Source: Caldilineae bacterium
Lineage (GTDB): Bacteria; Chloroflexota; Anaerolineae; DTLA01
DNA length: 36,908 nt
Assembly (NCBI GenBank): GCA_037446815.1
Contig: JBBIHX010000012.1
Span: 1 to 36,908 of the forward strand
Direction of reading: 5' to 3'
Made by a program: the position numbers. Numbering within the stretch: the first letter of the stretch is position 1; each line of letters begins with the position of its first letter. This document shows, in pieces, positions 6,001-9,000 of this stretch.

Positions 6001-9000
6001 TACGCACGCGGCATCGGTGCAGTGCATGCACTGGTAGTTGACGAAATGCCAGTCGGTATTGCTTCGCTTGCTCAGTTTGATGAGCGTCCAGGTATCCGCC
6101 GACAGGCTCCGGGGCGTGTCGTACAGTTTCGCCGCGCCGACCGCCTCCACGGGCAGCCGCGCCGCCGTCTGGGTATCCGCGGGCAGTTTGTTCCATCGCT
6201 TGCAGGCCATCTGGCAAGCGCGGCAGCCCACGCACTTGGACGCATCAAACAGGATGGCGAGCGGCGCATCCGCCGGCGCGGCCTGCGCCAGGCCCGTCGG
6301 CCGTATCGCCCCGGCAGCCAGCAGAAGCCCCGAGAGTTTCAGGAAGTCTCTGCGGTTGATGTCCATAGGCTCTTACCTACCTTCCTCACGTCCGACCGTC
6401 GCAAGGGGTTCTCGGGCCTGGGCATTGTGCCGTTCCGCGCGGGGGCGGATTCCCCACCGCGACAATTCGGCCAGCACCCGACCCACCAGCGCGCCCATCT
6501 GCGCGGCGATAGATGGCGACAACTCCAGGCCGGTGTCAATGACCTCAGGCTCCACGCCCACAAGCACCAGTTCCCGCGGGAACGTGCCGCGCAGGCGAGT
6601 CGCCGCCAGCAGGTCCGCCAGGCCCATCTGGTGGGGCGAGATTTTGATGCCCAAGCAGGCGGGCACCTCATCTCCGCTCAGGCGAACGAGGGCCCCAGGC
6701 GGGTTGCCCATCGCCACAGCGTCCACGATGAGCACGCGGTCCGCCTCTTCCATGTAGTGCAACAGGTCCAGCCCAAGGGTTCCCCCGTCCAAGACCTGCA
6801 CGTCGTCTGGGAACTCAAACCGTTCCGCCAGACGCTGCACGACCCGAACGCCCACGCCCTCATCGCGCAGCAGGATATTGCCCAGGCCGAGTACCAACGT
6901 CTTCCCCACGGGCTACATGCTTCCGTCAATGCGGATGCGCGTGAGTTCGCGCCCGCGGGCGTCCACCACATGCACCGCGCACGCCATGCAAGGGTCAAAC
7001 GAATGAATCGTGCGCAGAATCTCAACGGGCTGCTCCGGGTCCGTTACCGGCGTGCCGATGAGCGCGGCCTCGTAGGCACCCGGCTGGCCTTTGGCATCCC
7101 TGGGCGACGCGTTCCATGTGGAAGGCACAACACACTGATAGTTGGCGATCTTGCCGTCCACAATGTGCACCCAGTGCCCCAGCGCGCCGCGCGGAGCCTC
7201 GTGGAAACCCCACCCTTTGGCCTCTTTGGGCCATGTGGCGGGATCCCACTTCTCGCCGTTGTGCACCTTGAGGTCCCCATCCGCCATGCGGGTGGCCAGT
7301 TCGTCCAGCCAGGAGATGAGTTTTCCCGCGACGACGGCGGTCTCAATACCTCGGGCCGCGGTGCGCCCCAGCGTGGAGAACAGCGCCTCCGCGCCGACGC
7401 CGAGTTTGGCGAGCACGGCGTCCACCAGCGTCTTGACCTCGGGCCGGCCCGCCACATAGGCCACCAGCACCCGCGCCAGTGGGCCCACTTCCATCGCCTT
7501 GTCGTCGTACCGCGGAGCCTTGAGCCACGAGTACTTGCCGTCCGTCTGCAAGAATTCGTAGGGCGGCCTTGGCCCCGTGTAGTTCGGCTGCGTCTCCCCG
7601 TCCCACGGGTGCTTGGACACCCCATCGCCCGCCCCGTACCGATACCATGAATGCGCCACGTACTCGGCGATCTTGGTGTGGTCCAGGGGGTGCAGGGTGC
7701 TCAAATCGCGGTTGAGGATGACCCCCGACGGGAACAGCATCGTGCCTGCCGCGTCAGGGAACTCGCCGTAGGCCAGGAAATTGCCCAAGCCCTCACCCAG
7801 CCCGGCCCACTCCTTATAGAACGAGGCCACGGCGAGCAGGTCGGGGATGTACACCTGGTCCACGAACTGCTTGGCCTTGACGAATAGCCTGCGGATCAGG
7901 GCCAGTTTGTCGGCGTTGATGGCCGTCTCGCTGTCTGGATCCAGCGTGATGGACATGCCGCCCACCAGGTAGGTCTGCGGGTGGGGGTTCTTGCTGCCCA
8001 GAATCGCGTGGACGCGGATGACATCCCGCTGCCAGTCCAGCGCCTCCAGGTAGTGGGCCACGGCCATCAGGTTGGCCTCCGGCGGGAGTTTGTACGCCGG
8101 ATGACCCCAGTAGCCGTTGGCAAACGGCCCCAACTGGCCACTCTGCACGAAGGCGGTGAGTTTGTCCTTGACGGCCTTGAAGTAGTCGGCGCTAGAGTTG
8201 GGCCAATCGGAGATGGATTGGGCCAGTTGGGAGGTCGCCACGGGGTCTGCGCGCAGGGCGCCGGTTACATCCACCCAGTCCAGGGCGTGCAAGTGGTAGA
8301 AATGAATCACATGGTCTTGAACATACTGAATCCCCGCGATGAGGTTGCGGAGGATGCGGGCGTTATCGGGAATCCGAATTCCCAGGGCGTCTTCTACGCT
8401 TCGCACGGAAGCGACGGCATGCACCGTTGTTCAGACGCCTCATATGCGCTGGGCCATGAGCCAGGCTTCGCGGGGATCGCGGCCCTTTTGGATGATTTCC
8501 AGCCCGCGGAACATGGTGCTGGAACTCCAGGCCTCGGCCACGCGCCCGTTCTCCACCTTGGCCTCAATGCGCAGATGCCCTTCAATCCGGGTAACGGGGT
8601 CAATCGCGATTCGCTCGGCCACTTTTACTCCTCCTCTTTCTCCTTGCTGAGACGACTGGCCGCCACCGCGCCCGCGGCGCCGACTACCAGGCCGGCAGCA
8701 GCGCCGATGGCCCCTGCAGCCGCGGGAGAAAGCCCTCCGGCAGCAGCCTCCACCTCGGGGTACGCGCTCGGTGGGGTCAACTGGTGGATGGGCACCGGCT
8801 CATAAGCAGGGCTTTCCCAGAAGTTCGGGGCGGCGCAAGCGATGCATCCGTGCCCCGCGCCGACGGGCCAACTGGTGCCTTCGTTCCAGCGGAGCGTAGG
8901 GCAGTTGTGGAATGCCACCGGCCCCTTGCACCCCATCTTGTACAAGCACCATCCCTTGCGATGGCCTTCATCTCCCCATGCCTGCACGAACTCTCCGGCG

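Follow-up and report, generated by a model that had tools for sequence, protein, structure and literature searches.

The periplasmic HysAB [NiFeSe] hydrogenases of Desulfovibrio and Desulfomicrobium (PDB 5jsh, 2wpn and 1cc1) are Group 1 heterodimers that carry selenium on the Ni; a SelB- and SECIS-dependent UGA places selenocysteine (Sec) at the terminal Cys of their C-terminal motif, DPUxxC. Sec codons in the N-terminal CxxC Ni motif have been described in Groups 4b, 4e and 4g, for which the accessible part of PMC13582414 gives 47 sequences (about 0.2%), UxxU and UxxC forms included. As presented there, these genes have a single downstream stem-loop whose first or second loop base is G, co-occur with selABCD, are miscalled as truncated genes, and stand mixed with Cys genes inside clades. 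By its design that study did not cover Groups 1-3, as the initial annotation of the locus described here had pointed out, and its supplementary Table 1 consists of Group 4 rows only. The same part of the article credits Baltazar et al. 2011 with two Group 1 sequences that carry an N-terminal CxxU; UxxU is absent from that report as cited there. The two N-terminal positions have also been engineered one at a time in E. coli Hyd-1. According to the accessible sections of Evans et al. 2021 (PMC8020662), the C76U and C79U variants of this O2-tolerant enzyme, made by UAG suppression, were active with a lower KM for H2, kept 3% and 13% of the activity, respectively, and lost the tolerance to prolonged O2. 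These losses of activity and of O2 tolerance weigh against an evident selective benefit of Sec.

The window analysed here is a stretch of 36,908 nucleotides from a Caldilineae bacterium (assembly GCA_037446815.1, contig JBBIHX010000012.1, positions 1 to 36,908). Under translation table 11 the large-subunit gene hupL falls into an ORF of 60 aa (8440-8622) and an ORF of 503 aa (6913-8424), which reproduces the split gene call from which the initial annotation had started. When TGA was read as U, positions 6913-8622 of the minus strand gave 569 residues with zero further stops, in agreement with the read-through product first proposed. The N-terminal motif of this product is QRIUGVUTTVH, with U61 and U64, and the C-terminal motif is DPCMACAVH, so that DPCMAC is indeed unchanged. 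Between the first bases of the two UGA codons the distance is 9 nt. In a comparison with PDB chains, U61 and U64 aligned with both Cys of RICGVC (the first Cys was checked in 3myr_B and 4c3o_A). The coordinates of all features are collected in Table 1.

Table 1. Features of the hydrogenase locus, in positions of the 36,908-nucleotide window
Feature	Position	Strand	Remarks
HybA-like 4Fe-4S ferredoxin subunit	5452..6366	-	Fer4 domains, TAT_signal, C-terminal membrane helix
hupD, HyaD/HybD-type maturation endopeptidase	6373..6909	-	TIGR00140 169.3 bits (cut-off 151.8)
hupL-type [NiFe] hydrogenase large subunit	6913..8622	-	569 codons, read-through translation
hupL start and stop		-	GTG after GAGGAGGAG ribosome-binding site; TAG stop
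SECIS-like hairpin	8397..8413	-	CGCUUC/CGUGC/GAAGCG, 6-bp stem
Candidate mini-hairpin	8414..8427	-	ACGG/CCGU, 6-nt loop, 12 nt past UGA-61
UGA codon 64	8431..8433	-	second Cys of N-terminal Ni motif, Ni-Fe bridging ligand
UGA codon 61	8440..8442	-	first Cys of N-terminal Ni motif, terminal Ni ligand
Ile60 codon AUA	8443..8445	-	directly 5' of UGA-61; synonymous choice specific to UxxU genes
hupS small subunit	8625..9725	-	TIGR00391 440 bits; Tat signal SRREFLKF; C-terminal membrane helix

Judged by its sequence, the hupL product is the large subunit of a Group 1, Tat-exported [NiFe] hydrogenase. PF00374 matched it with 782 bits, and the top PDB matches were all Group 1, led by 3myr_B, with Hyd-5 and Hyd-1 next. 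The HupL fold is settled because the matches to solved structures reach 754 bits (3myr_B, residues 2-551 aligned). The top NCBIfam matches were Hyd-1 (660 bits) and Hyd-2 (630 bits), each below its own equivalog cut-off; together with the PDB matches and the Tat-type small subunit, they bear out the Group 1 identity first assigned. By contrast, HysAB is distant from HupL (about 307-342 bits over residues 158-561, versus 754 for 3myr_B), the scores for the HysA and NiFeSe_hydrog models were below cut-off (NF045518, 410.5 versus 780; NF033181, 565.7 versus 600), and DPCMAC stands where HysAB has DPUxxC. The Tat small subunit and the Group 1 matches set the enzyme apart from Group 4, whose enzymes are energy-converting and multi-subunit with no Tat small subunit. 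While the Group 4 Sec-type enzymes are cytoplasmic-facing in the accessible description (PMC13582414), the enzyme here would be a Tat-exported uptake hydrogenase. No other Group-1-type large subunit was found in the genome, which leaves hupL as the only one.

The nearest solved structure for HupL is PDB 3MYR, which we take to be the Allochromatium vinosum membrane-bound [NiFe] hydrogenase, of Isp type (1e). The hupS product matched it as well: its PDB matches were 1h2a_S, 5xvb_S and 3myr_A, with 305 bits for the 3MYR small subunit. Its TAT_signal_seq score was 23.1 bits (cut-off 16.7), and its membrane helix was read from hydropathy. Whereas 3MYR has four Cys ligands, two of these positions are UGA-encoded here. 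Unlike this presumably Isp-type enzyme, the locus has no isp-like genes between or beside hupS and hupL, and a gene for a HybA-like ferredoxin follows hupD. The latter product matched PRK10882 HybA with 178 bits, below the cut-off of 263, and has its membrane helix at about residues 274-295; it is the probable electron acceptor of HupSL. At the C-terminus, HupL extends 18 residues beyond His551, and the alignments to mature PDB chains stop at 551. This tail and the adjoining hupD predict that the extension is removed by a dedicated endopeptidase.

We then quantified the exchange of Sec and Cys codons across homologs. The class sample of 401 genomes gave 113 match rows, from which 90 loci were examined, all TGA-flagged rows included: 37 were UxxU, 16 CxxU and 37 CxxC. 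A second set of 80 named loci held 17 UxxU, 5 CxxU and 58 CxxC, and UxxC occurred in neither set. Overall, the 170 loci comprised 54 UxxU, 21 CxxU, 0 UxxC and 95 CxxC. Codon 61 was TGA in 54/170 and TGC or TGT in 116/170, codon 64 was TGA in 75/170 and TGC or TGT in 95/170, and neither position held any other codon. In all 90 class-sample loci, in-gene TGA was confined to these two codons, as was every TGA of the 170 loci taken together, and the C-terminal motif was DPCxxC in every locus covering that region. The exchange reported initially was recovered: the best 30 loci here were 19 UxxU, 4 CxxU and 7 CxxC (16, 5 and 9 previously, in another sample), and the 80-locus set had earlier been scored as 15, 5 and 47 with 13 unread. 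The second site appears as the primary one because CxxU exists and UxxC never does.

A Sec-type gene was present in 49 of the 401 sampled class genomes. Among the 65 loci of the main clade, 52 were Sec-type and UxxU was the commonest state (36/65); in the accessible part of PMC13582414, by contrast, the Group 4 Sec type is rare and includes UxxC. The concept is not wholly new, since Group 1 N-terminal CxxU (2011) and Group 4 UxxU (2026) are in print. The initial annotation had stated that selenium in Group 1 was so far placed only in the C-terminal motif; this is too strong, given the two CxxU sequences of Baltazar et al. 2011 as cited in the accessible part of PMC13582414. We found no literature report of UxxU in Group 1. 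The two CxxU sequences resemble the 21 CxxU genes here, in which Sec would take the bridging place in the N-terminal motif.

On the IQ-TREE tree 15 Sec/Cys changes were needed, and at least 11 were forced by starred branches. Near-identical Sec/Cys pairs exist, with identity up to 98.8%. Probably the Sec form arose stepwise, from CxxC over CxxU to UxxU, and switched back and forth many times, a direction of evolution that we infer. Selenium would sit at the same two ligand positions as in the Hyd-1 variants, which are single in the accessible sections of PMC8020662, whereas the natural genes have both together and in a standard-type enzyme. In effect, nature would have made the double version of C76U + C79U many times, and the close Sec/Cys pairs offer a ready comparison of Se with S at the terminal and bridging Ni ligands. 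We also looked at second-sphere residues in Sec versus Cys proteins. The most divergent columns tracked the all-Cys Geobacter-type clade and were inseparable from phylogeny, and this candidate was set aside.

A SECIS-like hairpin follows the two UGAs, at the place and with the stem, loop and loop G that had been annotated. Its stem pairs 8413-8408 with 8402-8397 around the loop CGUGC (8407-8403), in which G is position 2, and it starts 17 nt past UGA-64 and 26 nt past UGA-61. For 69 Sec-type segments RNAalifold returned exactly the 8413-8397 helix. Compensatory changes occurred in 3 of its 6 pairs, and 97.3% of the hairpin cells were paired, versus 80.6% in shuffles. No such signal was found in the 82 Cys-type segments (51.4% paired versus 49.7% in shuffles). 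Within the main clade, a perfect 6-bp Watson-Crick stem was found in 52/52 Sec-type and 0/13 Cys-type genes. In the larger set, 64 of the 69 distinct Sec-type genes had a perfect hairpin in the same register, versus 1 of 82 Cys-type genes. Cys-type genes of the next clade (0/14) and of the far clade (0/10) had no perfect stem. The loop was CGUGC or CGUGA, with G at position 2, in 64 of the 69 Sec-type segments. The other five share one shifted-register sequence pattern, and the three of them that were folded gave a hairpin in which one C is bulged and the loop opens with G. Of 9 independent Sec/Cys contrasts, about 7.9 had the hairpin on the Sec side and 0 showed the opposite. Over the whole window, the scores of all Rfam families stayed below their gathering thresholds, and a permissive scan of 8250-8550 gave chance matches only, with no SECIS family fitting the hairpin. 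The minimum-energy fold contained an outer 7-bp helix (GGCGUCU/AGACGCC) as well, which was rejected as not Sec-specific, being complete in 15/50 UxxU, 8/19 CxxU and 19/82 CxxC segments.

The same genome has a tRNA-Sec (69.9 bits, anticodon UCA, 8-bp acceptor stem, discriminator G), which is the one UCA tRNA found in it, as well as selA (587 bits), selB (358 bits) and selD (373 bits), the last with its own in-frame TGA (Sec-type selD). TGA is otherwise an ordinary stop in this genome because it closes 367 of 963 long frames. Co-occurrence with selA says little, because 348 of the 401 class genomes carry selA; in two of the 49 Sec-type genomes, G155 (93% complete) and G167 (90%), selA had no match at E<=1e-60.

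We weighed several readings of the locus. It is likely, in our judgement, that hupL belongs to a functional, membrane-anchored, Tat-exported Group 1 uptake hydrogenase with Sec at positions 61 and 64, and that both UGAs are recoded via SelB and one hairpin. Sec at both N-terminal Ni-binding Cys sites was the central proposal of the initial annotation; the Sec/Cys exchange, the covarying hairpin and the full Sec machinery argue for it, insertion being read from sequence. HupS, HupL and the HybA-like subunit would form the membrane-anchored uptake enzyme, matured by the adjacent HupD protease. Sec61 would bind Ni terminally and Sec64 would bridge Ni and Fe, while both C-terminal ligands remain Cys; selenium at these positions may bring some catalytic benefit. 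SelB with Sec-tRNA(Sec), bound to the one short GC-rich hairpin in the coding sequence, would recode both UGAs. Since the hairpin starts 17 nt and 26 nt after them, it should stay folded with either UGA in the A site. In the minimal SECIS of E. coli fdhF, the spacing from the UGA is roughly 11 nt. The longer distance from UGA-61 to the hairpin counts against this explanation, as do the lack of an Rfam SECIS match and the two Sec-type genomes with no selA match.

That distance would suit a reading in which only UGA-64 encodes Sec and UGA-61 is read otherwise (for example as Cys or Trp, by near-cognate decoding or by a Cys-charged UCA tRNA) or is inefficient, a selenium-dependent expression throttle. 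The existence of CxxU genes beside 0/170 UxxC loci points the same way, and tRNA-ReC decoding is named as a caveat for UxxU genes in the accessible part of PMC13582414. We nevertheless consider this reading unlikely. Codon 61 alternates between TGA and TGY alone in the 170 loci, as expected for Sec; the sole UCA tRNA found has tRNA-Sec features; and UxxU as the commonest state of the main clade agrees poorly with a site that is leaky or harmful when the enzyme is the only uptake hydrogenase. The genome's tRNA search found no Cys tRNA of the tRNA-ReC type. With the genome 94% complete, a Cys-inserting UCA tRNA of this type may lie on missing DNA.

UxxU genes also have an extra synonymous signature around UGA-61, which suggests that this site needs help and to that extent favours Sec at UGA-64 only. 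ATA at codon 60 was found in 48/50 UxxU segments, compared with 2/19 CxxU and 3/82 CxxC; genome-wide, ATA makes up about 10% of Ile codons. In an independent-pairs test of ATA60, 5.7 pairs agreed in direction and 0 opposed it (p about 0.03). The candidate mini-hairpin, which includes the Thr66 codon ACG (8427-8425), was complete in 32/50 UxxU, 3/19 CxxU and 0/82 CxxC segments, and ACG66 itself was found in 49/50, 7/19 and 26/82, respectively. In the phylogenetic test ACG66 was significant (p about 0.03) and the mini-hairpin was not (p 0.25), so we regard the mini-hairpin as a functional element only as a lead. Returning to Sec at both positions, we raise a tentative extension, possible though on the doubtful side. 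In UxxU genes, AUA in the P site, ACG66 and the 4-bp mini-hairpin might constitute a second recoding signal dedicated to UGA-61, which would form a bipartite element together with the main hairpin. Such an element would allow two Sec three codons apart, and thereby a natural Ni site in which one selenolate is terminal and the other bridging. This form would be the prevailing uptake hydrogenase in much of the Anaerolineae-type class and in some Nitrospirota, and would be tuned to low H2 supply where conditions are anoxic and often hot. A pair of UGAs at a distance of 9 nt, one covarying hairpin and the AUA context make a compact system for studying SECIS reach and codon-context effects.

We consider it very improbable that hupL is either a pseudogene or really split, translation ending at codon 61 and the downstream ORF of 503 aa being a remnant or a separate protein. 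Gene callers do cut hupL there, and 22 of the 120 best database matches are N-terminally truncated forms of 497-506 aa that begin just past the second TGA. Against this, the stops coincide exactly with the two Ni-ligand codons, both of them in 54 genes and a single one in 21 more; there are no further defects, full-length identity is 67-96%, the hairpin covaries, the remaining operon is intact, and a truncated product would be without the N-terminal Ni motif. The form with two UGAs is common in one bacterial class, yet its gene is usually mis-annotated as broken. Because standard gene calling cuts the Sec-type hupL, metabolic reconstructions of many Anaerolineae-type and Nitrospirota genomes may count their main enzyme for H2 uptake as broken or absent.

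Nothing beyond the bare in-frame stops speaks for an error in sequencing or assembly, or for TGA being reassigned throughout the genome, and this reading is refuted: both TGAs are spanned by contigs from 4 runs (4 studies) with no alternative letter listed there, the same codons recur in dozens of genomes, TGA closes 367 of the 963 long frames, and hupL ends in TAG and its neighbours in TAA or TGA. Among the runs carrying the locus no RNA run was listed, and one labelled metatranscriptomic was marked 'probably DNA'.

Finally, in the accessible part of PMC6258894, the HupXSL hydrogenase of Dehalococcoides resembles the enzyme here: it is an outward-facing Hup, has an additional HybA-like subunit, and its operon lacks a gene for cytochrome b. 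Its clade within Group 1 is a different one, with about 50% identity to the HupL of the window. The 15 phylum-sample matches of this Dehalococcoides-type clade contained no in-frame stops, and among its 11 class-sample loci there was one UxxU gene (L086).

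The initial annotation had joined two called frames into one [NiFe] hydrogenase large-subunit gene, hupL. Under table 11 the segment does break into ORFs of 60 and 503 amino acids, and with TGA read as selenocysteine (Sec, U) it yields, as claimed, a single 569-residue protein free of further stops. The translation carries U61 and U64 in the N-terminal motif that binds Ni (QRIUGVUTTVH) and DPCMACAVH close to the C-terminus; it starts with a GTG at 8622, preceded by GAGGAGGAG, and ends with TAG. Both TGA codons are spanned by contigs from four runs in four studies, one of these contigs being from a relative about 92% alike, and no alternative letter is listed at either codon. 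Elsewhere in this genome TGA is a normal stop, terminating 367 of the 963 frames of at least 500 codons. From its sequence, hupL appears to be a real and well-supported selenoprotein gene.

The genome is equipped for selenoprotein synthesis, with tRNA-Sec, selA (587 bits), selB (358 bits) and selD (373 bits) all present. The tRNA-Sec (69.9 bits) has the anticodon UCA, an 8-bp acceptor stem, a long extra arm and a discriminator G, and is the only UCA tRNA found in the genome. About 830 nt from its gene, ARAGORN reports a poorly paired 101-nt "tRNA-Trp" (G000:C109:1830-1930, minus strand), probably a false call. The selD gene (G000:C13:14206-15138, minus strand) is itself a selenoprotein gene with an in-frame TGA (CAG-U-AGK), and about 12-14 nt 3' of it stands a short GC hairpin whose second loop position is G. 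Across the class, selA occurs in 348 of 401 genomes; two genomes flagged as unpublished (G345 and G388) are counted in this tally and in the other denominators of 401, and no further result depends on them.

Features of the hup region and its neighbours
Feature	Position in window	Strand	Remarks
Zinc-finger protein (zf_Tbcl)	4127-4429	-	small, double treble-clef
161-codon frame	4827-5312	-	ORF after the HybA-like gene; no family match; N-terminal stretch is Arg-rich and resembles non-coding sequence, so the frame probably overstates the gene's length
HybA-like ferredoxin	5452-6366	-	after the protease gene; Tat signal, one membrane helix
HyaD/HybD protease	6373-6909	-	downstream of hupL
hupL, large subunit	6913-8622	-	
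SECIS-like hairpin	8413-8397	-	CGCUUC, loop CGUGC, GAAGCG
Codons of residues 71 and 75	8398-8412	-	middle of the SECIS stem
Mini-hairpin ACGG/CCGU	8414-8427	-	4 bp, 12 nt 3' of first UGA
TGA codon 64	8433-8431	-	
TGA codon 61	8442-8440	-	
ATA (Ile) codon	8443-8445	-	directly 5' of first UGA
hupS, small subunit	8625-9725	-	upstream of hupL; Tat signal, C-terminal membrane helix
1648-aa ORF	10119-15065	-	upstream of the hup operon; has matches of the CBM96, disaggregatase-repeat and glycoside-hydrolase-42-like kinds

The nearest NCBIfam models of HupL are those for the large subunits of Hyd-1 (660 bits) and Hyd-2 (630 bits), each score lying below the equivalog cut-off, and the protein falls far under the classical [NiFeSe] models (HysA, 410 against a cut-off of 780; NiFeSe_hydrog, 566 against 600). 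Its top PDB match is 3myr_B (754 bits), the Allochromatium vinosum Isp-type enzyme, followed by the large subunits of Hyd-5 and Hyd-1. U61 and U64 align exactly to the two Cys of RICGVC in these structures, and HupL has 18 residues beyond His551, the point at which the mature PDB chains end. The proximal-cluster sequence of the small subunit is DCAGCTES, a mark of the standard, O2-sensitive type. No HybB or cytochrome b gene was seen among the operon neighbours, and the genome, 94% complete, yielded no Group-1-type large subunit other than hupL.

A read-through search of the 401 genomes of the class returned 113 match rows, spread over 98 genomes. We examined 90 of these loci, including every TGA-flagged row; the other 23 rows were all without stops. 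In-gene TGAs occurred only at codons 61 and 64, giving 37 UxxU, 16 CxxU, 0 UxxC and 37 CxxC motifs, and the C-terminal motif was DPCxxC throughout. Sec-type genes (UxxU or CxxU) were carried by 49 of the 401 genomes. The Sec-type form is unusually frequent in the orthologous clade (at least about 67% identity to HupL), accounting for 52 of 65 loci. A further set of 80 loci, taken from genomes of named species with search patterns favouring Cys at position 61, comprised 17 UxxU, 5 CxxU and 58 CxxC; eight of its proteins are identical to first-set proteins. By record title, its UxxU genes come from Anaerolineae, Thermoflexus, Nitrospirota/Thermodesulfovibrio, Thermodesulfobacteriota and Methylomirabilia.

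The hairpin described in the initial annotation was recovered 17 nt 3' of the second TGA, and its proposed association with Sec held: a perfect 6-bp Watson-Crick stem in fixed register is present in 52 of 52 main-clade Sec-type genes and in no Cys-type gene, be it of the main clade (0/13), the next clade (0/14) or the far clade (0/10). For 69 distinct Sec-type segments RNAalifold predicts this helix and no other, with 97.3% of cells paired against 80.6% in shuffles (reached by 0 of 500) and a covariation score of 0.405 versus 0.124; slid registers pair at only 26-63%. The 82 Cys-type segments gave no structural signal (51.4% versus 49.7%). Of nine Sec/Cys contrasts that are independent in the phylogeny, about 7.9 link the hairpin with Sec and none runs the other way (p ~0.008). 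Three stem pairs show two-sided changes (UA/GC/AU, GC/CG and CG/UA). In Sec-type genes residues 71 (A/S/C) and 75 (S/G/A) covary as A..S, A..G, S..A and C..A; since the stem changes alter these residues, the RNA constraint is visible in the protein, and RNA pairing shapes HupL at 71/75. One shifted-register sequence pattern is shared by five segments, of which one is from an unclassified bacterium and the others are titled Nitrospirota or Thermodesulfovibrio; the three that were folded gave a hairpin in which one C is bulged and the loop begins with G.

SelB with Sec-tRNA would bind this hairpin 3' of UGA-64. With the stem beginning 17 nt past UGA-64 and 26 nt past UGA-61, it is expected to stay folded with either codon in the A site. 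Measured from each UGA, the loop is 23 and 32 nt away. The bacterial SECIS search model allows 16-37 nt, and both distances fall inside this range. According to PMC13582414 and PMC8020662, Ni is bound terminally by the first Cys of this motif, and its second Cys forms a bridge between Ni and Fe, so the predicted enzyme would have one terminal and one bridging selenolate. Engineered Hyd-1 C76U and C79U, as described in PMC8020662, work at 3% and 13% of the native rate, with a lowered KM for H2 and less tolerance of prolonged O2. Higher H2 affinity in anoxic conditions is a plausible candidate benefit of Sec.

UxxU genes carry a further signature. The rare codon ATA, which this genome uses for about 10% of its Ile, precedes the first UGA in 48/50 UxxU, 2/19 CxxU and 3/82 CxxC segments (column compared over loci L019-L183 as well as the window). 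The Thr66 codon is ACG in 49/50, 7/19 and 26/82, and the mini-hairpin is complete in 32/50, 3/19 and 0/82, respectively. In independent-pairs tests ATA and ACG66 each reach p ~0.03; the mini-hairpin, at p 0.25, is not significant. In the RNA-lettered columns of supplementary Table 1 of PMC13582414, AUAUGA occurs 60 times, AUCUGA 7 and AUUUGA 0, counted as strings over two columns rather than genes. This suggests, as a lead, that in Group 4 as well a Sec UGA is commonly preceded by AUA.

Trees were built from 156 rows with FastTree and IQ-TREE (quick, LG+G4) after removal of six fragments and masking of the two motif residues. They require 21 and 23 state changes, respectively; for Sec/Cys changes the IQ-TREE tree requires 15, and at least 11 are forced when only starred branches are considered. 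Deeper clades are CxxC throughout and UxxC is absent, which suggests, as an inferred direction, that CxxC gave rise to CxxU and CxxU to UxxU, with reversions. A second, independent UxxU gene (L086:298-1848, minus strand, genome G020) lies in another Group 1 clade of shorter Hup-type enzymes, about 48-50% identical. It likewise has ATA before the first UGA, and its own hairpin (GCGCUG, loop AGUU, CAGCGC) 12 nt 3' of the second, which is absent from its nearest Cys relatives. It is the sole UxxU gene among 11 class-sample loci of its clade, and none of 15 relatives drawn from a phylum sample of 401 genomes contained an in-frame stop.

The double Sec in the N-terminal motif of Group 1 is new, the N-terminal Sec-type kind itself having been described recently. 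PMC13582414 (September 2026) reports CxxU, UxxC and UxxU in Group 4 only, excludes Groups 1-3, has no Group 1 row in its Table 1, and cites Baltazar 2011 for two Group 1 CxxU sequences. The available part of a 2026 review (PMC13188914) treats only UxxC-type [NiFeSe] enzymes, which it says occur exclusively in methanogens and sulfate reducers. Full-text searches, whose coverage lacks most subscription journals, returned no paper on UxxU in Group 1. Among the best 120 protein-database matches to HupL, 22 are forms of 497-506 amino acids beginning just past the second TGA, and none of the names shown bears a selenoprotein label.

Some single genomes hold paralogs of differing type: in G134 (L034, L065 and L072) a CxxC gene accompanies two UxxU genes, and G129, G262 and G365 are also mixed. 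This is reminiscent of sulfate reducers, which switch isoenzymes depending on Se. A CxxC protein from a JGI metagenome (P0009) and a UxxU protein from a Thermoflexus MAG (L117) are 98.8% identical, the differences seen within the first 100 residues lying close to the motif; enzymological work could use the two as a naturally occurring Sec/Cys pair.
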